A stretch of 64,000 nucleotides of DNA from positions 2,854 to 66,853 of the forward strand of contig OMWN01000010.1 in NCBI GenBank assembly GCA_900314765.1. The letters are read 5' to 3'. Under the pieces are notes generated by a model. It was not told the DNA's origin and ran no database searches. It was given only the letters and a program-made list of their open reading frames with translations. Source of the DNA: an uncultured Selenomonadales bacterium. Lineage in GTDB: Bacteria; Bacillota; Negativicutes; Selenomonadales; Selenomonadaceae. The first letter of the stretch is position 1; every line of letters begins with the position of its first letter. The translations under genes were made by a program, and so were the position numbers. Below are positions 8,718-22,551 of this stretch, piece by piece.

Positions 8718-9908
8718 GTGAATTTCATCTATATATCGCCGCAGTTTCCACGCACAAACTGGTATTTCTGCGAGAGGCTGAAACGAAACGGCGTGAATGT
8801 GCTCGGCATCGGCGACACGCCGTATGACGCCCTGCCGCAGGAAGTGCGTGACGCCGTGAATGAGTACTACTATCTCGACTCGCTCGAGGACTATGACAAG
8901 GTGTTTCGCGCGGTCGCGTTCTTCTCATTCAAGTATGGCAAGATTGATTGGATTGAGTCAAACAATGAGTATTGGCTCGAGCTCGACGCGAGGCTCAGGA
9001 GCGATTTCAATGTGACGACGGGCGTGAAGCTTCATGATGTGCGCGCCATCAAGAGCAAGGCGCTCATGAAGGCGCAGTATCGCGCGGCGGGCATACCGTC
9101 GGCGCGGCAAGAGCGTGTGCGCGACAAAGCGCAGTGCATGGCGTTCATCGCGCGCGTAGGATTCCCTGTCATCGTGAAGCCGGAGATTGGCGTTGGCGCG
9201 ACGGACACATGGCGGCTCAACAGCGAGAGCGACGTCGATGATTTTTTTGTCGAGAAGCCGGATGAGCCATACGTCATCGAGGAATTCGTCGACGGGAATA
9301 TTTACTCGTACGACGCCATCATCGACTCGAAGGGCGAGCCACTGTTCGAATCAACGACGGTGTGGCCGCCGTCTATCATGGACATCGTGATAGAGGGCCT
9401 TGACCTCGCTTATTACGTTTCGGCAGGCATGCCGGAGGAGCTCAGGCGATATGGCCGCGCGGCCGTGAAAGCGTTCCGCGCGGAGAGACGATTCGTTCAT
9501 CTCGAATTTTTCAGACTCAGCCGCGATCATGAAGGCCTCGGCAAAAAAGGTGCGTTCGTCGGGCTCGAGGTCAACATGCGCCCAGCGGGCGGCTATACGC
9601 CGGACATGATGAACTACGCGCACTCGATTGACGTCTATCAGATATGGGCAGACATGGTATCGTTCGATGAGCGTCGCGTGCCGCCCGCGAGCGAGGAGCA
9701 TTGCTGCGTGTATGCGGGCAGGCGAGACGGCGTCAGCTATTGTCACTCCGAGCAGGAAATCTTTGACCGCTACGGAGGCGACATCATGATGTGCGAGCGA
9801 TTGCCGGAGATGATGGTGCCGCAGATGGGCAGCAAGATGTACACGGCACGAGTAAGTGACGACGATGATGCGCATGAGTTCATCGATTTTGTTGAGACGC
9901 GCGCGTGA
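8718..9908 (+). CDS. ATP-grasp domain protein (orphan carboxylate-amine/thiol ligase), substrate unknown
   Basis: The central region FPVIVKPEIGVGATDTWRL...YVIEEFVDGNIYSYDAI...VGLEVNMRPAGG fits the ATP-grasp fold. I chose the GTG at 8718 because of a GAGGGGG RBS. There is no Ddl-type N-terminal signature. Confidence 0.75.
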   Translation: MNFIYISPQFPRTNWYFCERLKRNGVNVLGIGDTPYDALPQEVRDAVNEYYYLDSLEDYDKVFRAVAFFSFKYGKIDWIESNNEYWLELDARLRSDFNVTTGVKLHDVRAIKSKALMKAQYRAAGIPSARQERVRDKAQCMAFIARVGFPVIVKPEIGVGATDTWRLNSESDVDDFFVEKPDEPYVIEEFVDGNIYSYDAIIDSKGEPLFESTTVWPPSIMDIVIEGLDLAYYVSAGMPEELRRYGRAAVKAFRAERRFVHLEFFRLSRDHEGLGKKGAFVGLEVNMRPAGGYTPDMMNYAHSIDVYQIWADMVSFDERRVPPASEEHCCVYAGRRDGVSYCHSEQEIFDRYGGDIMMCERLPEMMVPQMGSKMYTARVSDDDDAHEFIDFVETRA

Positions 9909-9965
9909 CGCGCAAATGAAATATAAAAGGCGAGACCAAAATTCATGAGTCTGTAATATTACAGT

Positions 9966-10125
9966 GGAAATAACTCGGCGATGCCAGTCCTCATCCACTG
10001 CGCAATTTCGATAGGCTCTAAGGCTGGCTTCCTCGCGGCAAAAGCGAAGACACGCCGCTTCGGAGCCAGCCAAAGAGCCTATATGAAATTGCTAAATTAC
10101 TTCAGACTGGCATCACCTCGGGAAT
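9966..10125 (+). ncRNA. Candidate structured RNA / ERIC-like structured repeat, copy 1 (unclassified)
   Basis: The block folds by eye into a rod with four helices. P1 is 9977-9989 with 10105-10117. P2 is 10003-10009 with 10085-10091. P3 is 10011-10019 with 10074-10082. P4 is GGCTGGCT/AGCCAGCC. It is about 89% identical to 22285-22445, with compensatory changes in P3. TGTAATAT (-10-like) ends 7 nt upstream. Confidence 0.5.
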
Positions 10126-10159
10126 ATCCAAAATTTTATAGGCATGTTTTTACGCAACT

Positions 10160-10187
10160 GGGCGGCTTTCATGTCGCCCTTTTTTTA
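10160..10187 (+). terminator. Intrinsic terminator after structured element copy 1 and the ATP-grasp unit
   Basis: GGGCGGC (10160-10166) pairs with GTCGCCC (10173-10179), followed by TTTTTTT. Confidence 0.75.
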
Positions 10188-10299
10188 TTGTGGTTTTATT
10201 GAATTTTTCATTTTTTTTTGCTAGTATTTTTGACGATAGTTTATGAAATGTGTTGTTAGCAAAATCACTACAAGCTGATGCAAATGGCAACCTGCTTTT

Positions 10300-10360
10300 G
10301 TCCGCCCCTTGAGTGGCGGGGGACCGCCGTAGGCGGTGGTGGGGTGACGGCGAGAGAGTC
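10300..10360 (+). repeat. Solo GC-rich hairpin module related to the MITE termini at 27573-27822
   Basis: It contains CCGCC..GGCGG and ACCGCC-GTA-GGCGGT hairpins and ends in GGCGAGAGAGTC. The right MITE end has GGCGGAGAGGGTC. The module is embedded in an otherwise AT-rich leader. Confidence 0.45.
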
Positions 10361-10429
10361 GTTAAAAATTTGAAATTTAATTTTTCAAAGGAAAAATTAT
10401 AATCGCAAAATCGGAAGGAGCAATCGTCG

Positions 10430-11215
10430 GTGGAAGAAAAGCTCAAGTTGTATGGGTTTAACAATCTCACGAAGTCCCTGAGCTTCAACATTTATGATAT
10501 ATGCTACGCGAAGTCGTCACGCGAGCAGCGGGACTACATCAAATACATCGACTCGCAGTATAATTCGGATAGGCTCACGAAGATACTGTCGCGCGTGACG
10601 GAGATGATTGGCGCGAAGATACTCAACATCGCGAAGCAGGACTACGATCCGCAGGGCGCGAGCGTGACGCTCTTGGTCGCGGAGGAGTCAGCGGCCATCA
10701 AGGGTACGAAGCTCCCGCGTCCGATGCGCGATGCCGTCGTCGCTCACCTCGACAAGAGCCACGTCACGGTGCACACGTATCCCGAGTATCACCCCGACAC
10801 GAGCATTGCGACGTTCCGCGTTGACATCGACGTCTCGACGTGCGGCGAGATCACGCCGCTCAAGACGCTCGATTACCTCATCAGCAATTTTGATTCGGAC
10901 ATCATCACGATGGACTACAGAGTCAGAGGCTTCACGCGCGACATCTCCGGCAAAAAACTTTTCATCGATCACAAGATAACGAGCATACAGGACTACATAA
11001 AGCAGGAGACGCTCGACGCGTACGACGCCGTTGACATCAATGTCTATCAGGCCAATCTTTTCCACACGCGGATGCTCATAAAGGAAATCGACCTCAAAAA
11101 TTATCTTTTCAATACGGACATCTACGAGATCCCGCCGAAGACGCGGCTCGCCATCAGCGACAGCCTGCGCCGCGAGATGATAGAGATTTACAGCGGCCAA
11201 AATGTTTTCGGGTGA
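10430..11215 (+). CDS. speD: S-adenosylmethionine decarboxylase proenzyme (E. coli SpeD type)
   Basis: (M)[26 protein letters not shown]...[24 protein letters not shown] closely parallels the E. coli SpeD N-terminus. GTG start with a GGAAGGAG RBS. Confidence 0.92.
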
Positions 11216-11233
11216 AGGAGGAAATTTTAAAGA

Positions 11234-12691
11234 TTGGAACACGTTTTGTCACAGGAAGATGCTCCGATACTTGAAGCATTGAAGAAAATGAAAAGACGGC
11301 GACTCGTGCCGTTCGATGTGCCGGGTCACAAGCGCGGCCGTGGCAATCCGGAGCTCACAAATTTTCTCGGCGAGGATTGTCTCTCCGTCGACGTTAATTC
11401 GATGAAGATGCTCGACAATCTCTGTCATCCCGTGTCGGTCATTCGCGACGCGGAGAGACTCGCGGCGGACGCATTCGGCGCGGCGCATGCGTTTCTCATG
11501 ATTGGTGGCACGACGTCGGCCGTGCAGACGATGGTGCTCACGGCGCTGAAGCGTGGCGAAAAGCTCATACTGCCGCGCAACGTGCACAGGAGCGTCATCA
11601 ACGCGATGATACTGTGCGGCGCCGTGCCTGTCTACGTGAATCCGGAGATGGACAAGACACTCGGCATTTCGCTCGGCATGAAGGTGAGCGAAGTGAAGCG
11701 CGCCATAGAGGAAAATCCCGACGCGAAAGCCATATTCGTCAACAATCCCACGTACTACGGGATATGCTCGAACATAAAGGAAATCGCACGGCTCGCCCAC
11801 GAGCATGGCATGCTGCTCCTCGCGGATGAGGCGCACGGCACGCACTTTTATTTTCATGACGCGTTGCCGATGGCGGCGATGAAGGCGGGCGCGGACATGG
11901 CAGCGCTCTCGATGCACAAGTCGGGCGGCTCGCTCACGCAGTCGTCTTTGCTCCTCACGGCGGATACCATATCCGAAGGCTATGTGCGTCAAATCATCAA
12001 CCTCACGCAGACGACGAGCGCGTCGTATCTTCTCATGGTCAGTCTCGACATATCGAGGCGGCGTCTCGCGCTTCACGGCAAAGAGATTTTCGACAAGGTG
12101 ATTGGCCTCGTCGAGTACGCGCGCGAGGAGATAAACGCGATAGGTGACTATTACGCGTATGCACGTGAGCTCGTCGATGGCGACGCGGTGTATGATTTCG
12201 ACATCACGAAGCTCTCGATTTTCACGCGCTCGCTCGGACTCGCGGGCATAGAGGTGTATGACCTTTTGCGTGACGAGTACGACATACAGACGGAGTTCGG
12301 CGACATCGCAAATATTTTGGCGTATGTCTCGGTCGGCGACAGGCCAAAGGACATTGAGCGGCTCGTCGCGGCTCTCTCTGAGATACGCAGAAACTACAAA
12401 AAAAATCAGAAGAACATGCTCGAGGCCGAGTACATAAACCCGAGCGTCGTATGCGGACCGCAGGAGGCTTTCTATGCGGACAGCGAGTCACTGCCGATAG
12501 ACGAGACGGCGGGACGTGTCGCGAGCGAATTTGTCATGTGCTATCCGCCGGGGATACCGATACTCGCGCCGGGTGAGCTTGTGACGCCCGAGATACTGCG
12601 GTACATTCACTACGCGAAAAAGAAGGGCTGCTCGATGACGGGCCCCGAGGATATGTATATAGAGCGACTCAATGTGATGAAGGAAGCATGA
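11234..12691 (+). CDS. speA: Orn/Lys/Arg decarboxylase family enzyme (fold-type I PLP), probable arginine decarboxylase (Bacillus SpeA type)
   Basis: FDVPGHKRG near the N-terminus and SMHKSGGSLTQSS (PLP lysine). Its position between speD and speE/speB suggests arginine decarboxylase. The start is uncertain (TTG at 11234 or TTG at 11246). Confidence 0.8.
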   Translation: MEHVLSQEDAPILEALKKMKRRRLVPFDVPGHKRGRGNPELTNFLGEDCLSVDVNSMKMLDNLCHPVSVIRDAERLAADAFGAAHAFLMIGGTTSAVQTMVLTALKRGEKLILPRNVHRSVINAMILCGAVPVYVNPEMDKTLGISLGMKVSEVKRAIEENPDAKAIFVNNPTYYGICSNIKEIARLAHEHGMLLLADEAHGTHFYFHDALPMAAMKAGADMAALSMHKSGGSLTQSSLLLTADTISEGYVRQIINLTQTTSASYLLMVSLDISRRRLALHGKEIFDKVIGLVEYAREEINAIGDYYAYARELVDGDAVYDFDITKLSIFTRSLGLAGIEVYDLLRDEYDIQTEFGDIANILAYVSVGDRPKDIERLVAALSEIRRNYKKNQKNMLEAEYINPSVVCGPQEAFYADSESLPIDETAGRVASEFVMCYPPGIPILAPGELVTPEILRYIHYAKKKGCSMTGPEDMYIERLNVMKEA

Positions 12692-12697
12692 TAATCA

Positions 12698-13567
12698 ATG
12701 GATTTGTGGTTTACGGAGAATCATACGAAAAACGCGCGCTTTTCAATGAAAGTTGACAATGTCCTTTTCACAAAACAGAGCGAATTTCAACGCATAGATA
12801 TTTTCGACACGCCGGAGTTTGGGCGCGTGCTGACGCTCGACGGCTATACGATGCTCACGGAAAAGGACGAGTTCATGTATCACGAGATGATCGTGCATGT
12901 GCCGATGAGCGTTCATCCGAACGCGAAAAACGTGCTTGTCATAGGCGGCGGCGACGGCGGCACGGTGCGCGAGCTCACGCGGTTCAAATGCGTCGAGCAC
13001 ATCGACCTCGTCGAGATAGATGAGGATGTCGTGCTCTCGTGTCAGAAATATTTGCCTCAGACGGCGTCGAAGCTCGATGACCCGCGCGTCGACAAGCACT
13101 ACGAGGACGGGCTCAAATTCATTCGCCATCATGAGGATGAATACGATGTCATCATCGTTGATTCGACGGATCCGTTTGGCCCGGGCGAGGGGCTTTTCAC
13201 GCGCGAATTTTACGGCAACTGCTACAGGGCGCTCAAAGCAGACGGCATCATGGTCAATCAGCATGAGAGCCCATTCTATACGGATACGGCGTATGCCATG
13301 CAGCGCGCCCATGAGCGCATCGTGCAGTCTTTCCCAATAGCGAAGGTCTACGAGGTGCACATTCCGACATATCCGTCGGGTCATTGGCTTTTTGGTTTTG
13401 CCTCGAAGAAATATCATCCGTACAAAAATGTGGACTTTACGAGATGGGAGAGCCAAGGCTTTAAAATGAAGTACTACAATCCGCGTCTTCATGTGGCGTC
13501 GTTCGCGTTGCCGACGTACGTTGAGGATATGCTGAAGGAGGTAGAGAAGCGCGATGAGGCAAAGTAA
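12698..13567 (+). CDS. speE: Spermidine synthase / polyamine aminopropyltransferase
   Basis: LDGYTMLTEKDEFMYHEM, VLVIGGGDGGTVRE and IIVDSTDPFGPGEGLF are canonical SpeE motifs. Confidence 0.93.
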   Translation: MDLWFTENHTKNARFSMKVDNVLFTKQSEFQRIDIFDTPEFGRVLTLDGYTMLTEKDEFMYHEMIVHVPMSVHPNAKNVLVIGGGDGGTVRELTRFKCVEHIDLVEIDEDVVLSCQKYLPQTASKLDDPRVDKHYEDGLKFIRHHEDEYDVIIVDSTDPFGPGEGLFTREFYGNCYRALKADGIMVNQHESPFYTDTAYAMQRAHERIVQSFPIAKVYEVHIPTYPSGHWLFGFASKKYHPYKNVDFTRWESQGFKMKYYNPRLHVASFALPTYVEDMLKEVEKRDEAK

Positions 13568-14441
13568 AAATGTCGAGACATTCCTCGGCTGTGACAAAGA
13601 CTACGACGACGCGCGCATCGTCATCTACGGCGCGCCGTTCGACTCGACGACGTCGTATAGGCCCGGAACACGGTTCGCGAGCCGCGTCATGCGCGCGGAG
13701 TCGTACGGGCTCGAGACATACAGCCCGTATCAGGATGTTGACATTGAGGACGCCGCCATTTTCGACGGCGGCGACCTCGAGCTCTCGTTTGGCAATACGG
13801 AGAAGGCACTCTCTGATATTCATGACTATGCGAAAGGCGTGCTCGCGGACAATAAGCTGCCGTTTCTCATCGGCGGCGAGCATCTTGTGACGCTGCCGGC
13901 TGTGCGGGCGGCGTATGAGAAGTACCCCGACCTCTGCGTGATTCATTTCGACGCGCATACGGATTTGCGCGATGAATATCTCGATGCGAAGCTCTCTCAT
14001 GCGACCGTCATCAGGCGCGTGTGGGACATGTTGGGCGATGGACGCATATATCAATTCGGCATAAGGAGCGGCGAGCGCGATGAATTTTATTGGGCGATGA
14101 GGGATCATCACACGCACCTGCAAAAATTCAATTTCACGGGGCTCGACAGCGTCGTGTCGGAGCTTCGTTCGAGGCCGATTTATTTCACGATAGACCTCGA
14201 CGTGCTCGACCCGTCGTGTTTTCCTGGAACGGGGACGCCCGAGGCGGGCGGCGTGACATTCGCAGAGCTGTTGAAAGCGATTTTCGCCGTCGTGAGGAAC
14301 TCGATGATTGTGGGCTGCGACATGGTGGAGCTCTCGCCGCCGCTCGACGAGAGCGGAGCTTCAACGGCGACGGCGCTGAAACTCATGCGCGAAATGCTTT
14401 TGTGCCTCGAAAAGCCATTCATAAAACCAGAAATCGTGTAA
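13554..14441 (+). CDS. speB: Agmatinase (ureohydrolase family); could equally be an aminopropylagmatine ureohydrolase
   Basis: Arginase-fold metal-binding motifs HFDAHTDL, DLDVLDP and SPPLD. It overlaps speE by 14 nt. Confidence 0.88.
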   Translation: MRQSKNVETFLGCDKDYDDARIVIYGAPFDSTTSYRPGTRFASRVMRAESYGLETYSPYQDVDIEDAAIFDGGDLELSFGNTEKALSDIHDYAKGVLADNKLPFLIGGEHLVTLPAVRAAYEKYPDLCVIHFDAHTDLRDEYLDAKLSHATVIRRVWDMLGDGRIYQFGIRSGERDEFYWAMRDHHTHLQKFNFTGLDSVVSELRSRPIYFTIDLDVLDPSCFPGTGTPEAGGVTFAELLKAIFAVVRNSMIVGCDMVELSPPLDESGASTATALKLMREMLLCLEKPFIKPEIV

Positions 14442-14484
14442 ATTTTATATAGAGGAAAGCAAATTGAAGGGGGAATTTTTACAA

Positions 14485-15684
14485 ATGGGAAAAGCTATGA
14501 TTATCGGCTGTGGCGGCGTTGCATCAGTGGCCGCGCATAAATGCTGTCAGAACAGCGACGCATTTGACGAGATATGCATCGCGTCGCGTACGAAGTCGAA
14601 ATGCGACGCACTCAAGGCGAAGATTGACGGCGGCAAGACGAAGGTGACGACGGCGCAGGTTGACGCTGACAATGTGCCGGAGCTCATCGCGCTCATCGAG
14701 AAGGTGAAGCCAGACGTCGTGCTCAATCTCGCGCTTCCTTACGAGGACCTTCATATCATGGACGCATGCCTCGCGACGAAGACAAACTACGTCGATACGG
14801 CGAACTATGAGCCGCCAGACACGGCGCATTTCGAGTACAAATGGCAGTGGGCGTATCGCGACCGCTACAAGGACGCGGGCATCACGGCGCTCCTGGGCTC
14901 GGGTTTTGACCCGGGCGTCACGAGCGTTTTCTCTGCATACGCGCTCAAGCATGAGTTTGACGAGATAAATTACATCGACATTCTCGACTGCAATGCCGGC
15001 GATCATGGCTATCCATTTGCGACGAATTTCAACCCAGAGATAAATATTCGCGAAGTATCGGCGAAGGGCAGCTATTGGGAGGACGGCCATTGGGTCTACA
15101 CGGAGCCGATGGAGATAAAGCGCGTCTACGATTTCCCAGAGATTGGCCCGAAGGACATGTATCTCCTTCATCATGAGGAAATAGAGTCGCTTGCGCTCAA
15201 TATCCCCGGCATAAAACGCATCCGCTTCTTCATGACGTTCGGCCAGAGCTATCTCACGCATCTCAAGTGCCTCGAAAATGTCGGCATGACATCCATTGAG
15301 CCGATAGACTTCGAGGGACATAAAATCGTGCCACTGCAGTTTCTCAAGGCCGTGCTGCCGGACCCAGCGAGCCTTGGCCCGCGCACGAAGGGCAAGACGA
15401 ATATCGGCTGCATATTCCGCGGCGTGAAGGATGGCAAGGACAAGACGTATTACCTTTATAATGTCTGCGACCATCAGGAGTGCTACCGCGAGGTCGGCTC
15501 GCAGGCCGTATCGTACACGACGGGCGTGCCCGCGATGATTGGCACAGAGCTCATCATGAAGGGGATATGGAAAGGCCCCGGCGTATTCAATATAGAGGAG
15601 TTCGACCCAGACCCATTCATGGAAGAGCTCAACAAGTGGGGGCTCCCATGGAAAGAGAGCTACACGCCTGACCTCGTGGAGTGA
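14485..15684 (+). CDS. Saccharopine dehydrogenase-like enzyme: carboxy(nor)spermidine dehydrogenase family
   Basis: Rossmann start MIIGCGGVASV, about 400 aa, immediately upstream of nspC. I chose the ATG at 14485 because of a GAAGGGGGA RBS. Confidence 0.85.
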   Translation: MGKAMIIGCGGVASVAAHKCCQNSDAFDEICIASRTKSKCDALKAKIDGGKTKVTTAQVDADNVPELIALIEKVKPDVVLNLALPYEDLHIMDACLATKTNYVDTANYEPPDTAHFEYKWQWAYRDRYKDAGITALLGSGFDPGVTSVFSAYALKHEFDEINYIDILDCNAGDHGYPFATNFNPEINIREVSAKGSYWEDGHWVYTEPMEIKRVYDFPEIGPKDMYLLHHEEIESLALNIPGIKRIRFFMTFGQSYLTHLKCLENVGMTSIEPIDFEGHKIVPLQFLKAVLPDPASLGPRTKGKTNIGCIFRGVKDGKDKTYYLYNVCDHQECYREVGSQAVSYTTGVPAMIGTELIMKGIWKGPGVFNIEEFDPDPFMEELNKWGLPWKESYTPDLVE

Positions 15685-15688
15685 TAGG

Positions 15689-16888
15689 ATGACGACGAAT
15701 AAGCTCTGCTCGCAGGATGAGCTCGCGATGCGCCACGCGATGCGCAGGGTGCATGATGAAGTGATGACGCCGTGCTACGTCGTGGATGATGCGCGATTAA
15801 AATACAATCTCGAGATTTTGTCATCGATTCGCGAAGCGACGGGCGCGAAAATTCTGCTCGCGCAAAAAGCGTTCTCGATGTTTCACTTTTACCCGTTGAT
15901 TGCGAAGTACCTCGACGGCACGACGGCAAGCGGACTTTATGAGTCGCGCCTCGGCCGTGAGGAGTTCCGTGGCGAGGTGCATGTCTTTGAGCCAGCGTAT
16001 CGCGATGATGAGTTCGATGAAATCGCGAAAACGGCGGATCATATCGTGTTCAATTCGATAGCGCAGTGGAAGAAATATCGCGACCGCGCGCTCGAAAGTG
16101 GTTGCGTGTGCGGTCTGCGTGTCAATCCTGAGCACTCGACGCAGGACACGCCGATATACGATCCGTGCGCGCCAGGCTCGCGTCTCGGTGTGCGCGCGTC
16201 TGTGCTCGAGCGTGAGCTCGAGAGAGACGCTCATGCGCTCGACGGCATCACGGGGCTTCACATGCATACGCTTTGCGAGCAGGGAGCGGAGCCACTTTAC
16301 GATACGCTGAAAGTGTTTGAAGAAAAATTGGGTGCGTATCTCGCGAAAATGAAGTGGGTGAATCTCGGCGGCGGTCATCACATCACGAAGGATGACTACG
16401 ACCGCGAGCTTTTGAAAAAATGTATTCGCTACATGCGCGGAACATATGGTGTTGATGTCTACCTTGAGCCGGGCGAGGCTGTGGCGTATCATGCAGGCGA
16501 CCTCGTGACGACGGTGCTCGACATCGTCGAGACGGATGGCGTGCCTGCGGCGGTGCTCGACACATCGGCGGCGTGCCACATGCCCGACGTCATCGAGATG
16601 CCGTATCGTCCGCCGCTCTATGGCGCGGGCGAGCCCGATGAGCTCACGTACACGTACAGGCTCACGGGGCCGACGTGCCTTTCGGGCGACATCATCGGCG
16701 ACTACTCATTTGCGGAGAGACTTCACGCAGGCGACAGGCTCGTATTCAGTGACATGGCGATATATTCCATGGTCAAAAACAACACGTTCAACGGTATGCC
16801 ATTGCCGTCGATCATTGCGGTGGAGAATGACAAATGGCGTGTCGTGAAAAAATTTGGTTACGAGGATTTCAAAGAAAGATTATCTTGA
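15689..16888 (+). CDS. nspC: Carboxy(nor)spermidine decarboxylase (fold-type III PLP)
   Basis: TPCYVVDDARLKYNLEIL is an N-terminus typical of CANSDC/NspC. Other motifs are LLAQKAF, NLGGGHH and EPGEAV. It starts 4 nt after the dehydrogenase gene. Confidence 0.88.
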   Translation: MTTNKLCSQDELAMRHAMRRVHDEVMTPCYVVDDARLKYNLEILSSIREATGAKILLAQKAFSMFHFYPLIAKYLDGTTASGLYESRLGREEFRGEVHVFEPAYRDDEFDEIAKTADHIVFNSIAQWKKYRDRALESGCVCGLRVNPEHSTQDTPIYDPCAPGSRLGVRASVLERELERDAHALDGITGLHMHTLCEQGAEPLYDTLKVFEEKLGAYLAKMKWVNLGGGHHITKDDYDRELLKKCIRYMRGTYGVDVYLEPGEAVAYHAGDLVTTVLDIVETDGVPAAVLDTSAACHMPDVIEMPYRPPLYGAGEPDELTYTYRLTGPTCLSGDIIGDYSFAERLHAGDRLVFSDMAIYSMVKNNTFNGMPLPSIIAVENDKWRVVKKFGYEDFKERLS

Positions 16889-16901
16889 GTGGTGATTTCT
16901 G

Positions 16902-17555
16902 TTGAAAGCGAAAAAATTATTGGCGGGCGTCATTGCGTCCATGATATTGGCGATGCCGCTCACGATGAATAACGTGAGTGCAGAGGGCAATGATGAGGCA
17001 AAACCTTCCACATCTATGGAGACGACGCTTGAAGAGCTGGCAAAGCATTTCGACTACAGGGAGGCTGTCAATGAGGCGACAGAGTCAAATGTCAGCGCCT
17101 ACACGATACGCCTCGGCATGGAAGGCGACGACATCTGGTTCCCTGAGCATGAGTGGCTGTTTTTCCGTCCGTCGAATGCGAAAGCAACGAAGTTATTCCT
17201 GCGCGCCATGTCTGCGAAGGCGCCTGTGAAGGAAATGCTCGCGCTCAATATAAAGGATGGCTGCATAAAAAATATCGGCGTCGCATTTTTGACGAACGAC
17301 AACAAGACGGCAGAGGACATATTCGACAGAGCCGTCGGCAATGTTTCGTATCGCATGCCGAACGTGATGCCAAAAGATGAGCCTACTCACTACGAGCGCT
17401 ACATCAAAGACAAAAACGCGACACTCGTCGACATGCGCGAGTGGCTGCTCGACGACCACGGTCTCGCCGTCGTGCGTTACACGAGCCCAACACCAGAGGG
17501 CGGCTCGCTTTTCGACACGCCGACGTACGACACGATTGTCGTGTACAGATATTGA
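16902..17555 (+). CDS. Exported protein of unknown function (signal peptide), last gene of the polyamine transcription unit
   Basis: MKAKKLLAGVIASMILAMPLTMNNVSAEG looks like a Sec signal peptide. I recognise no family. There is only a 13-nt gap after nspC and no terminator until 17560. Confidence 0.6.
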   Translation: MKAKKLLAGVIASMILAMPLTMNNVSAEGNDEAKPSTSMETTLEELAKHFDYREAVNEATESNVSAYTIRLGMEGDDIWFPEHEWLFFRPSNAKATKLFLRAMSAKAPVKEMLALNIKDGCIKNIGVAFLTNDNKTAEDIFDRAVGNVSYRMPNVMPKDEPTHYERYIKDKNATLVDMREWLLDDHGLAVVRYTSPTPEGGSLFDTPTYDTIVVYRY

Positions 17556-17559
17556 AATT

Positions 17560-17589
17560 AATCCCATCGTGAAAACGGTGGGATTTTTT
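17560..17589 (+). terminator. Intrinsic terminator ending the polyamine operon
   Basis: AATCCCATCG (17560-17569) pairs with CGGTGGGATT (17576-17585), followed by TTTTT. Confidence 0.8.
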
Positions 17590-17741
17590 GTGCGCAAATT
17601 CTACAAAATTTTTTCAGGAAAAGAAGAATATTGGATTTTTGTGTCGAAATATTAAACAGTTATAGGAGTTTTTGTGACTTTGATTACAACAGGATTAAGC
17701 AGGAAGCCTTATTTTATATCAGTCATCACTAAGGAGAGATT

Positions 17742-20700
17742 ATGATGAGCAAAAGAAGGAGCAATGCAGAGCTCACAAGCAAAGTGTTGGCAGGACTCGC
17801 GAGCATCGCGGCAGGCACGTTCATTATGGCGCCATTCGCTTCAACGGCTGAGGCAGCCACGGCCGACTACACCTATGTGGATATAGGTAGCGGCACGCAG
17901 ACTGCCAACATCGATGCAAGCACTGGCAACTCGACTGTCGTGGCGCGCGCCGCAGGCGATGCGACGATAAGCGGCGAAGTCAAGGCGGTGAACGCGGCTG
18001 GCACGAATACAGCTGGCGATGCTGTGTACATGATGGTGTCCAATCAAGACATCGATTGGAGCAGGGCAAGCGACAACGGCAGCGGCTTCACGAACATCAT
18101 CGAGAGCATCAACAATTCGACGGCGTCGGCTGAGTTCAGCAATACGGCGTTTAATGCTGGGAATGGCACAATAACGTTTGTGACGGGCGACATAGCGACG
18201 ACGGCGAGTGCTCTTGATGCGGGCGCAAGTGGCAACATATACATCGGACTCTCCGACACTGATGTGAAGGCGCTCGGCACGAACGCAAAAAATCTCAGCG
18301 CATCGGTGACGCTCGATGGTAATAGTAACTTCAGCACGATAACTTCGGCATCCACTTCTAACTCAAATGGATATATTCATTTGACATCACGCGGTACGTT
18401 GAAAGCGGATTCTGCGCAGATTTTTGATAGTTCAGTAGATACAACCACAACAGCAGGTGCAAACCAGAATCCTAGCGCTGTGCGTAGCGATGCCAATGCC
18501 GCCGTTGATTTTGAGGCGGGCACGCTCGAACTCACGGATGACTACTACAATATCGACTACCTCATGACGGCGACGGAACTCATCCACGAGGCCGACAATG
18601 GCACGACAGCTGTGCGATTCAAAAATGGCGCGACAGAGGTTGAAGTGTCAGCTATATCGGTTGATAATAGCTTAAATACTAATGAGGTTACGCTTGGCGT
18701 TTATCATGCATATAAAAGTGCGTATGATGAGCCAGCTTTTTCGAGCAATCAGGCATCAAGCGGACAGATGCGGATTCGTCAGTTTAACTTCACGGCGACT
18801 CCAATAACTGATAAGACGCTTTCATTTTCAGGTGATAACGTAAAGTTTGCGTCGCTTACAGATAATGCGCAGTTGGTGACAGTGAACGGCACGTCGAATG
18901 ATACCGCTTCTGATAAAGTTTCAATAGTTGCGACAAATTATTATGATATTACTAATAGCGTAGAGACAGACAGCACACTGTATTTCGGCCTTGATGGCAA
19001 CACGACAAATATACTTTCTGGCAGTGTTACAGTTGGCCATTCTTCTGACGAGGTAACATTGCAAAATGGCACGGTGGTTCATGATAATTCGTTGCTCGAT
19101 ATTGCTGCTGGCACGCTCAAAGTAACAAATGGAGTGAGCTTGCTTGGTCATGCGACGGCAGAGGTGTCAGAAGGCGCAACGCTCCAGACTGACACAATGA
19201 CGATAAGTTCTACATCGGAAGCGACTAATGGCGCTGAGCTTTCTGTTGATGGTACGCTCAAAGGACTGCACAACGATGGCGTAAAGCTCGATGCTACTGG
19301 TAAGACCATAACGGTAGGTCATTCTAATTCTACTAATTCGACTGACTCCGCAAAAGGCACGCTTATAGTTGATGAAGAGAGTACTTTGACAGGCGCGAGT
19401 ATTTTTGTAGATCCAGCTTGGAATGGAAGCGATACGATCAGTGATGCTTCCAATTTTGCATACGGATCAACTGACCCAGACGATACGAGTACGACTGTTG
19501 ACTATAAATTGACAATAGGACAAAATTCTGTTGGCAGTCTTGGCACGACAAGCACATCGACGGCCGCTAAGCTTTTCGATACGTCCACATATAAGTGGGG
19601 CGATGATGACATCAGTGCCGCGCTGTATCTTGCGAAGCCGACATATCTGAGCAGTGGCTCTGGCGGCATAAAGGTCGACGGCTCACTGACTACAGATAAT
19701 CTTGGTAAAACAGGCTACGAAGCGGCTACGGCAAATAACGCGACGTTTGGTGATAACTCGCTCCTTATGGTCGAAACGAGGGCGCTTAATGGAAATGCCG
19801 CTCTCAATGGAGACGCGAGCAGCACGGTAACAAGCACGCTTACTGTCGGCAATAATGCAAGTTTGCTTCTGTCAGCGGATGTGCTCGGAGATGTCGGCGG
19901 AACAAAGAGCTATGGAATTTATTCTAACTTTACTACTGCAAATAGTACCAATACGACAGATACCAACTGGCTCAATAATACCAACAATATTAGCTTTGAC
20001 AATAAGCTGCTGATGGCATCTAAGGCGCCGGGCGCGAACAACGGGTCAGTCGAGGTCACGCGTCTCTCGACGGCAAGCGTACTGCCTAGCGCTGTGCTTC
20101 CAAATGTCATTGACCATGTGGACCTCACGCGCGACACGACGCACCCGGGCATAAAGTATCTCTATGACGTGACGAGCACGGGACTCACGGACACTGAGTC
20201 CACGGACATGATAAACTTCGCGGCTCAAGCGGGCGAAATCGCTGGCGCAACGGCGACGACCGTGCTAGGAGCGACGGAACTCACGGACACGGCGCAGCAG
20301 CATTTCTCGTGGCTCTCAGGCAGCAAGAAACGCCACGGAGATGACTTCTGGTTCAAATATCTCTACAACAAGACGGACTTCGATGGCCTGTCGCTCGACA
20401 ATTTCCACGGGGCAGACTACGACACGAAGCTCAACGGCGCAATCCTCGGCTGTGATTTGCGCTCTGTCGGCGACTATCGTCAGGGCGTTGCCATCGCCTA
20501 CGGTGATGGCTCGACGGATGGTAGCCTCGCCAATGACGATTACAAACTCTGGACGCTCAGCTATTATGGTAGCCTCATGAGAGACAAAAACAATCTGCTC
20601 TTTGACGTCAGCTATGGCCGTGCTCGTCACGACGTTGACGCGTACTATGCGGGCAGACATTTCGAGATGGAGCCGAAGCACAATATATTCAGCATTGGCG

Positions 20701-22240: not shown

Positions 22241-22284
22241 AGAGAAAAGTTGTCGATAAAAACGCAAAGGTTTTGAAATGAGAT

Positions 22285-22445
22285 GGAAAATGACTCGGCG
22301 ATGCCAGTCCTCATCCACTGCGCAATTTCGACGGGCTCTAAGGCTAGCTTCCTCGCGGCAGAAGCGAGGACACGTCGCTTCGGAGCCAGCTCAAGAGCCC
22401 GTATGAAATTGCTAAGCTCCTTTGGACTGGCATCGCCTCGAGAAT
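22285..22445 (+). ncRNA. Candidate structured RNA / ERIC-like structured repeat, copy 2 (unclassified)
   Basis: It has the same rod fold as copy 1. P1 is 22297-22310 with 22424-22437 (14 bp, perfect). P2 is 22323-22329 with 22405-22411. P3 is ACGGGCTCT (22331-22339) with AGAGCCCGT (22394-22402). TTGTCG-18-TGAAAT lies at 22250-22279. Confidence 0.5.
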
Positions 22446-22460
22446 TTCACAAACGCATAC

Positions 22461-22515
22461 AAAAAGAGGACTGCTCCATTAGCGAAAATCGCTGACGGAA
22501 ACAGTCCTCTTTTTG
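22461..22515. terminator. Bidirectional intrinsic terminator (structured element copy 2 on +, pseudouridine synthase gene on -)
   Basis: AGAGGACTG (22465-22473) pairs with CAGTCCTCT (22502-22510). There is an A-run on the 5' side and a T-run on the 3' side, plus an inner AGCG/CGCT helix. Confidence 0.8.
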
Positions 22516-22518
22516 CAT

Positions 22519-22551
22519 TTAAAATTTTAATTTTAGCTCTGATGATTTTTC
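22519..22551 (-). repeat. Degenerate 33-nt tandem duplicate of the last 10 codons plus stop of the adjacent pseudouridine synthase gene
   Basis: The minus strand reads ..EKSPELKLKF* (gene end, stop at 22552-22554) followed directly by EKSSELKLKF* (22551-22519). All six differences between the two units are G/C to A/T. Confidence 0.7.

Follow-up and report, generated by a model that had tools for sequence, protein, structure and literature searches.

Some Firmicutes encode both routes of spermidine synthesis, the one that draws on decarboxylated S-adenosylmethionine (dcAdoMet) and the one that draws on aspartate beta-semialdehyde (ASA), as was reportedly first noted by Hanfrey et al. in 2011. 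The present analysis concerns a 64,000-nt stretch of DNA (contig OMWN01000010.1 of assembly GCA_900314765.1, hereafter the window) from an uncultured bacterium of the Selenomonadaceae, in which genes of both routes lie side by side. They form part of six co-directional open reading frames (ORFs) at 10430-16888 on the + strand, found at the same coordinates as in a first-pass annotation of the sequence. Our results make it quite likely that this locus is orthologous to the hybrid polyamine cluster of Bacillota that has been characterised in Clostridium leptum. In C. leptum, a carboxyaminopropylagmatine dehydrogenase and decarboxylase (CAPADH and CAPADC) turn agmatine into N1-aminopropylagmatine; tested in E. 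coli deletion strains, the pair gave ~150-fold more N1-aminopropylagmatine than the Agrobacterium tumefaciens pair, and no spermine (Li 2025, PMC11999265). The aminopropyltransferase of C. leptum is a spermine synthase of high specificity and can aminopropylate agmatine too, and the pathway proposed in the same study leads from arginine to agmatine, carboxyaminopropylagmatine, N1-aminopropylagmatine, spermidine and spermine, with agmatine, N1-aminopropylagmatine and spermidine as the intermediates shared by both modules (PMC11999265). Moreover, in terms of kcat/Km the C. leptum dehydrogenase favours agmatine over putrescine 811-fold (Ostlund 2026, PMC13683441), and it is arginine decarboxylase (ADC), not ornithine decarboxylase (ODC), that correlates with the agmatine route (Li 2025, PMC11999265).

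Three further systems help to place the locus. The carboxyaminopropylagmatine (CAPA) pathway of Synechocystis sp. PCC 6803 (Slr0049 CAPADH, Sll0873 CAPADC and Sll0228, the N1-aminopropylagmatine ureohydrolase or APAUH; PMC10599626) follows the same steps from agmatine through CAPA and N1-aminopropylagmatine to spermidine; the window dehydrogenase matches the structure 8H4Z, and the window ureohydrolase has the Glu/Arg pair of APAUH. Synechocystis differs in that it has no SpeD/SpeE module, makes no spermine by the CAPA route and does not hold these genes in one six-gene operon. Among Firmicutes that have the CAPA pathway, some additionally encode S-adenosylmethionine decarboxylase (AdoMetDC) and spermidine synthase (Xie 2023, PMC10599626). 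Thermus thermophilus and Thermococcus kodakarensis share with the window the pairing of speE with speB, agmatine as acceptor and the clearing of N1-aminopropylagmatine by an agmatinase homologue, but they are without the ASA-dependent pair, through which, in the window, most spermidine synthesis is expected to run. Finally, the putrescine-type carboxyspermidine dehydrogenase and decarboxylase (CASDH/CASDC) of A. tumefaciens, Brucella abortus and Paracoccus denitrificans and the carboxynorspermidine enzymes (CANSDH/CANSDC) of Vibrio cholerae belong to the same two protein families and use the same ASA-dependent chemistry. Their recognition residues are Ile/Asp or Val/Val/Asp, in contrast to Asn/Glu in the window, and those genomes use ODC or diaminopropane rather than ADC.

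The six-gene cluster and its relatives

The six genes of the window are the following, with profile scores given against the curated cut-offs where these apply.

10430..11215, + strand: speD, E. coli-type (long) pyruvoyl S-adenosylmethionine decarboxylase, 261 aa, GTG start (TIGR03331 equivalog, 424 bits against 256)
11234..12691, + strand: speA/adc, short 'ancestral' arginine decarboxylase of the aspartate aminotransferase (AAT) fold, B. subtilis SpeA type, 485 aa (PF01276, 225 bits; PF03711)
12698..13567, + strand: speE, polyamine aminopropyltransferase, 289 aa (NF002010, 398 bits against 260)
13554..14441, + strand: speB-like ureohydrolase of the arginase fold, 295 aa, overlapping speE by 14 nt (PF00491; TIGR01230, 278 bits against 174)
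14464..15684, + strand: putative CAPADH, annotated as CASDH/CANSDH-like and saccharopine-dehydrogenase-like (PF03435, PF16653)
15689..16888, + strand: putative CAPADC of the NspC/CASDC family, a pyridoxal phosphate (PLP) enzyme of the alanine-racemase (AR) fold (TIGR01047, 453 bits against 409)

In profile searches with Pfam and NCBIfam, five of the six passed curated cut-offs. A CASDH/CASDC-family pair, an AdoMetDC and an aminopropyltransferase are adjacent to each other, which is the gene content of the hybrid cluster with both routes. In C. leptum DSM 753 (our locus L030) these six genes recur in identical order and orientation, with identities to the window proteins of 80% for speD, 72% for adc, 73% for speE, 64% for speB, 83% for the dehydrogenase and 61% for the decarboxylase; the agmatine-type residues of the dehydrogenase and the clade of SpeE are the same as well. 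The accessions given for C. leptum in Li 2025 (PMC11999265) are EDO61987 for ADC, EDO61989 for the aminopropyltransferase, EDO61991 for CAPADH and EDO61992 for CAPADC. Because the run EDO61987-61992 is consecutive and the lengths of 284, 399 and 376 aa agree with those of the L030 ORFs, the tested enzymes belong to this syntenic cluster. The papers on C. leptum deal with enzymes rather than with an operon, and Li 2025 (PMC11999265) uses neither the word 'cluster' nor the word 'operon'. The first-pass annotation had allowed that the same six-gene arrangement might already be characterised in relatives, and in C. leptum this proved to be so. The two organisms differ in several respects: C. leptum is a monoderm gut member of the Oscillospiraceae whereas the window host is a diderm of the Selenomonadaceae, the window operon has an additional orphan exported ORF at its 3' end, and its genome adds a lysine/ornithine decarboxylase of the Selenomonas ruminantium type. 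Moreover, enzymes of C. leptum have been assayed, whereas those of the window are known here from sequence.

The arrangement is common among Bacillota. A scan of species-representative genomes gave 80 related loci, the arrangements of which were read by tblastn with the window proteins, and the full order speD-adc-speE-speB-dehydrogenase-decarboxylase was found in 35 of them, including C. leptum DSM 753, Schwartzia, Anaerovibrio, Megamonas, Selenomonas bovis and Blautia as well as other Lachnospiraceae, Oscillospiraceae, Acetobacterium and Peptococcaceae. Since the identical order recurs in this way in different Bacillota families, it is not due to chance, and its recurrence among the 80 loci marks it as a widespread conserved unit. 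In another 15 loci, mostly from Ruminococcus-like metagenome-assembled genomes, speD-adc-speE-dehydrogenase occurs without a ureohydrolase gene in the cluster, and 21 loci have the dehydrogenase-decarboxylase pair alone (named Bacillaceae genomes and two Selenomonas loci among them). Across loci L011-L090, which span several Bacillota classes, identity to the window was 81-89% for the dehydrogenase, 50-72% for the decarboxylase and 57-77% for the ureohydrolase, which makes the dehydrogenase unusually well conserved. The closest named relative by protein identity is Schwartzia succinivorans (72-90% per protein), and of 18 further genomes from the family, 15 have the dehydrogenase. Judging from its legend, which names speA, speB, speD, speE and casdh, a figure of Li et al. 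2021 (PMC8503589) draws firmicute gene clusters around characterised short-form ADCs, including that of S. ruminantium.

A second configuration was found in five other Negativicutes families (G024, G026, G028, G029 and G030; loci L094-L103), in which speD, speE and the dehydrogenase gene lie apart from one another. Here the dehydrogenase is 45-47% identical to that of the window and carries an I-E-H-D motif, and SpeE is 45-49% identical. Given these dispersed genes with I-E-H-D and a deeply separate SpeE clade (see below), we distinguish two 'both routes' configurations in Negativicutes.

Signature residues and the proposed pathway

For the dehydrogenase, Ostlund 2026 (PMC13683441) proposed a recognition loop which, in B. 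fragilis numbering, consists of N105/E107/E229 in agmatine enzymes; Ile and Asp stand at the N105 and E229 positions in putrescine enzymes, and Val/Val/Asp is found in diaminopropane enzymes. Aligned to 8DEB, the window ORF has N114/E116/H237/E238 at the positions of N105/E107/H228/E229. The N-E-H-E motif is present in 90 of 95 aligned dehydrogenase homologues, including those of the window, Schwartzia and C. leptum, and the remaining five, all from the other Negativicutes families, have I-E-H-D. By this proposed motif the window enzyme is of the agmatine type (CAPADH). An assignment as putrescine-type CASDH was considered and rejected, the window having N and E and not Ile and Asp. Likewise, a Vibrio-type CANSDH was rejected on the NEHE residues found instead of Val/Val/Asp, on the score of 412 bits to NF043000 (carboxynorspermidine synthase), its only NCBIfam match, against a cut-off of 800, and on the fact that no PF00282 decarboxylase was found in the genome (98% complete). 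The best matches among solved structures were 4RL6, 4INA, 8DEB and 8H4Z, the last at 541 bits; 4RL6 (from S. pneumoniae) has been shown to be a CAPADH, and 3PZL (from T. volcanium) an APAUH (Xie 2023, PMC10599626). The likely true start of the gene is the ATG at 14485, favoured by homologues and by a better Shine-Dalgarno motif; with it the protein has 399 aa, as in C. leptum. For the decarboxylase, the score to the crystal structure 9EAF, which is the C. leptum enzyme (PMC11866407), was 520 bits.

The ureohydrolase, the only arginase-fold gene in this 98% complete genome, has the Mn-ligand motifs GGEH, DAHTD and DLDVLD. Xie 2023 (PMC10599626) reported that E60 and R151 (Sll0228 numbering) are conserved only in APAUH orthologues, and that the Synechocystis APAUH does not hydrolyse agmatine. 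In the window protein we find E54, in LETY, and R139, two residues past the Mn-ligand Asp (DAHTDLR). Both are shared with 3PZL and 3LHL and are missing from 3NIO (a guanidinobutyrase), 1WOG and 1GQ6 (a proclavaminate amidinohydrolase), and both are invariant in 49 of 49 homologues from the cluster. On this residue pair the enzyme is predicted to be an APAUH. No agmatine deiminase was found in the genome, and therefore no alternative exit from agmatine is evident.

The start of speD is preceded by a GGAAGGAG Shine-Dalgarno motif, and residues 105-119 of the protein hold a motif that opens with AHLDK and includes the serine expected to form the pyruvoyl group. We take the cleavage site and the serine to be placed as in the LDK-SH processing motif of E. 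coli SpeD. Judged by this motif and the TIGR03331 score, SpeD is an AdoMetDC of the self-processing pyruvoyl kind; the long SpeD had no match among the solved structures. The genome has another, small SpeD homologue, of B. subtilis type (158 aa; 76.1 bits against a TIGR03330 cut-off of 75.65), which stands alone on contig C9 (L104:3437-3913, - strand), between a gene for a DUF815 ATPase and an ORF of unknown function. It could be a second AdoMetDC, or a homologue neofunctionalised to arginine or ornithine decarboxylase, a type described by Li et al. 2023. The operon ADC is 72% identical to the C. leptum gene cited in Li 2025 as an AAT-fold ADC, and an S. ruminantium ADC of the same short AAT-fold class has been characterised biochemically (Liao 2008, cited in PMC8503589). 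On this homology the AAT-fold decarboxylase is predicted to be the ADC of the hybrid cluster and the supplier of agmatine. The earlier label 'SpeA-type' needs correcting as to the fold, which is the short B. subtilis-type AAT fold and not that of the E. coli AR-fold SpeA.

SpeE has the motifs GGGDGG, VEID and DSTDP. According to Li et al. 2024, all bacterial spermine synthases share a pattern of Asp in GGGDGG, Gly at +2 and Glu in the third motif. We considered these motifs as a predictor of spermine synthase and rejected them: the Asp in motif 2 and the Gly at +2 occur in all of the 67 aligned sequences, and motif 3 has Glu in 66 and Asp in one. The D-G-G/E pattern cannot settle the product of SpeE because nearly every sequence of the tree has it, those of the non-cluster clade too. 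The maximum-likelihood tree of the same 67 sequences splits 62 cluster-associated sequences, including those of the window and C. leptum, from five dispersed Negativicutes sequences, with 100/100 support for both groups and long branches between them. Identity of 73% to EDO61989, synteny and a shared clade support the orthology of the window SpeE with the C. leptum spermine synthase. Elsewhere in the genome, on contig C83 (9325-9738, - strand), a 549-aa ORF shows a weak match to the Spermine_synth domain (51 bits) and is possibly a membrane-fused spermidine-synthase-like protein.

If the window enzymes act as their orthologues do, from which all of the catalytic steps are taken, the following pathway would result. 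The gene content, synteny, motifs and clade membership to which it is fitted are those observed here. The AAT-fold SpeA would convert arginine to agmatine, which CAPADH would condense with ASA, using NADPH, to carboxyaminopropylagmatine, and CAPADC would decarboxylate this to N1-aminopropylagmatine. The single SpeB-like ureohydrolase would then strip urea from N1-aminopropylagmatine to yield spermidine, so that putrescine is bypassed. In parallel, SpeD would make dcAdoMet, with which SpeE might convert agmatine into the same N1-aminopropylagmatine pool and spermidine into spermine. Because agmatine, N1-aminopropylagmatine and spermidine are shared, the two chemistries would be complementary modules rather than redundant routes from putrescine to spermidine. 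The production of spermine by the window operon is what we infer from this orthology. None of the six proteins looks inactive, the motifs of SpeD, SpeE and the ureohydrolase being intact and the decarboxylase matching 9EAF. The first-pass annotation had favoured a hybrid pathway over simple redundancy, and orthology to the C. leptum enzymes and the motifs speak for it. Its suggestion that one route makes a triamine and the other a tetraamine agrees with what has been shown for the orthologous C. leptum enzymes (Li 2025, PMC11999265). An agmatine-first route, also raised there, is backed by the N/E/H-E motif of the dehydrogenase, the APAUH-type E/R residues of the ureohydrolase and the orthology to C. 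leptum.

Transcription signals and flanking sequences

The six genes are closely packed, with spacings from 5' to 3' of +18, +6, -14 (the overlap of speE and speB), +22 and +4 nt. The fourth becomes +43 nt if the ATG at 14485 is used, and this is the largest gap found, in line with the gaps of 45 nt or less described previously. GGAGG- or GAAGG-like Shine-Dalgarno motifs can be read ahead of all starts. The features around the six genes are:

10398..10403, + strand: putative -10 element of the operon promoter, a perfect TATAAT, 27 nt upstream of the speD start
16902..17555, + strand: orphan ORF of 217 aa with a Sec-type signal peptide (…LTMNNVSA/EG); a gap of 13 nt parts it from the decarboxylase gene, and one of 5 nt from the terminator hairpin
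17560..17585, + strand: intrinsic-terminator-like hairpin with an 11-bp stem and a T-run, the first strong terminator after the operon

The TATAAT is a candidate only, as the count of the promoter scan was not above that of shuffled sequences; it has no good -35 element at canonical spacing, and the match of the scan was TTGAAA at 10370 with AAAAAT at 10392-10397. The hairpin at 17560-17585 is the probable 3' end of the transcription unit. Within the six-gene cluster the sole terminator-like site on the + strand is a weak 5-bp stem inside speB (14162-14175), and the earlier claim of no internal terminator before 17560 stands to that extent. The operon would thus form a single predicted transcription unit of translationally coupled genes, which begins at a promoter near 10400 and ends with the 17560 terminator. 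The orphan ORF is probably co-transcribed with it. This ORF had no Pfam or NCBIfam match and was found neither in 40 other genomes of the family, a same-genus genome (82% complete) among them, nor at any related locus; it appears to be a lineage-specific add-on that stands outside the conserved cluster.

An Rfam scan of 9800-17800 (E <= 1) gave no riboswitch or leader family; a match to IS009 was discarded as chance (18.5 bits; gathering score 117). A GC-rich island with a double hairpin (10300-10360, + strand), some 70 nt ahead of speD, stands out from an otherwise AT-rich leader and had no Rfam match, and the leader as a whole (10270-10432) folds only modestly better than shuffled sequences (z = -2.2). 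Farther out, two hairpin-forming repeat copies of about 200 nt each (9960-10190 and 22280-22520; 87% identical, their first 170 nt nearly identical) flank a 12-kb block that holds the polyamine operon and an autotransporter gene. A terminator-like hairpin upstream of the operon (10160-10179) lies in the divergent tail of the first copy. Recent acquisition of the operon between the two repeats was considered and rejected, because conservation of the cluster extends through the family, with the dehydrogenase in the 15 genomes mentioned above and speE, speB, dehydrogenase and decarboxylase genes adjacent in several.

Alternative readings and significance

Several points weigh against the hybrid pathway as drawn above. 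The specificity of aminopropyltransferases for spermine or spermidine is not readable from their sequence. The aminopropyltransferase of Sporomusa ovata, the only one of Negativicutes tested, made spermidine efficiently and no spermine (Li 2025, PMC11999265). This enzyme (WP_021166903, 278 aa) probably belongs to the dispersed-gene clade, but its place there is judged by inference from taxonomy and length, and the SpeE ORFs of the five other Negativicutes families measure 275-281 aa by plausible starts, none of them exactly 278 aa. For the ureohydrolase, the equivalence of E54 to E60 was drawn from the alignment to 3PZL and not to the Synechocystis enzyme, and the list of tested proteins in Li 2025 (PMC11999265) does not include the C. 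leptum ureohydrolase. Lastly, the genome encodes a lysine/ornithine decarboxylase of the S. ruminantium type, on another contig (413 aa, 514 bits to 5GJM; L105 = C6:66500-74243). The cell thus has putrescine, which SpeE could simply convert to spermidine. This gene, presumably the source of the cadaverine and putrescine that the family attaches to peptidoglycan, adjoins a gene for a DegS-like histidine kinase; farther on, directly upstream of tmk, lies a YaaO-type AAT-fold decarboxylase gene (506 aa), a paralogue 37% identical to the operon ADC.

The main rival is a reading in which the ASA/agmatine module works as proposed but SpeD and SpeE make spermidine only, and no tetraamine. Spermidine would then come from putrescine of the lysine/ornithine decarboxylase or by way of N1-aminopropylagmatine, with two interchangeable aminopropyl donors and one product. 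The behaviour of the S. ovata enzyme agrees with such redundancy, as do the SpeE motifs, which do not part spermine from spermidine synthases, the putrescine that the lysine/ornithine decarboxylase can supply, and the solved structures closest to SpeE, which are the spermidine synthases 1IY9 and 1INL (279-283 bits). However, the window SpeE is 73% identical and syntenic to the spermine-specific C. leptum enzyme, and long, 100/100-supported branches separate it from the SpeE of the other Negativicutes families (45-49% identity). Those families have dispersed genes and the putrescine-type I/D dehydrogenase motif, and the other three aminopropyltransferases tested from genomes with both routes all made spermine (Li 2025, PMC11999265). 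We thus regard redundant spermidine synthesis as unlikely. The difference between a clustered agmatine type and a dispersed putrescine type may explain the divergent behaviour of the S. ovata enzyme in Li 2025.

It might also be that the operon does more in Selenomonadaceae than in C. leptum, with SpeE aminopropylating cadaverine or another diamine destined for the envelope, or with spermidine or spermine as an envelope constituent and a role for the exported ORF. The observations behind this idea are co-occurrence in one genome and the position of that ORF, and we hold it to be a long shot.

A classical layout, in which SpeA and SpeB make putrescine and both SpeD/SpeE and a true CASDH/CASDC pair convert it to spermidine, would fit the database names ('agmatinase' for TIGR01230, 'carboxynorspermidine synthase/decarboxylase' for NF043000/TIGR01047) and earlier kinetics in which the C. 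leptum dehydrogenase was active on putrescine (PMC10413350), at a Km of ~5 mM as quoted in Ostlund 2026. Against these stand the N/E/H-E residues of the dehydrogenase in place of I/D, the 811-fold preference of its 83%-identical C. leptum orthologue for agmatine, an NF043000 score of 412 bits, far under the 800 required, and the APAUH-type E/R pair of the ureohydrolase, the Synechocystis APAUH being without agmatine hydrolysis. Such a layout is very unlikely indeed. Synthesis of norspermidine or another second triamine from 1,3-diaminopropane by the ASA module, as in Vibrio, had been entertained in the first-pass annotation and is suggested by the NspC family name and by the best NCBIfam match of the dehydrogenase, 'carboxynorspermidine synthase'; it can practically be dismissed, since the V/V/D residues of CANSDH are absent, the 98%-complete genome yielded no group-II PLP decarboxylase of PF00282, to which family diaminobutyrate decarboxylase belongs, and the cluster has its own arginine decarboxylase and ureohydrolase.

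The hybrid agmatine-based pathway with an ASA and a dcAdoMet module, the agmatine specificity of the dehydrogenase and the spermine synthase activity have already been published, in 2023-2026, for enzymes of the same syntenic cluster. As a discovery the locus thus carries little weight, being an ordinary further case of a published system. Three observations go slightly beyond the papers: the APAUH signature is invariant in the SpeB of the cluster, the recognition-loop motif cleanly parts two gene organisations within Negativicutes, and an orphan exported ORF is appended to the window operon. Moreover, the names in public annotation are outdated for this clade, in which 'agmatinase' would become APAUH, 'carboxynorspermidine synthase' CAPADH and 'spermidine synthase' a probable spermine synthase. 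Rumen Selenomonadaceae are likely producers of spermidine and spermine.

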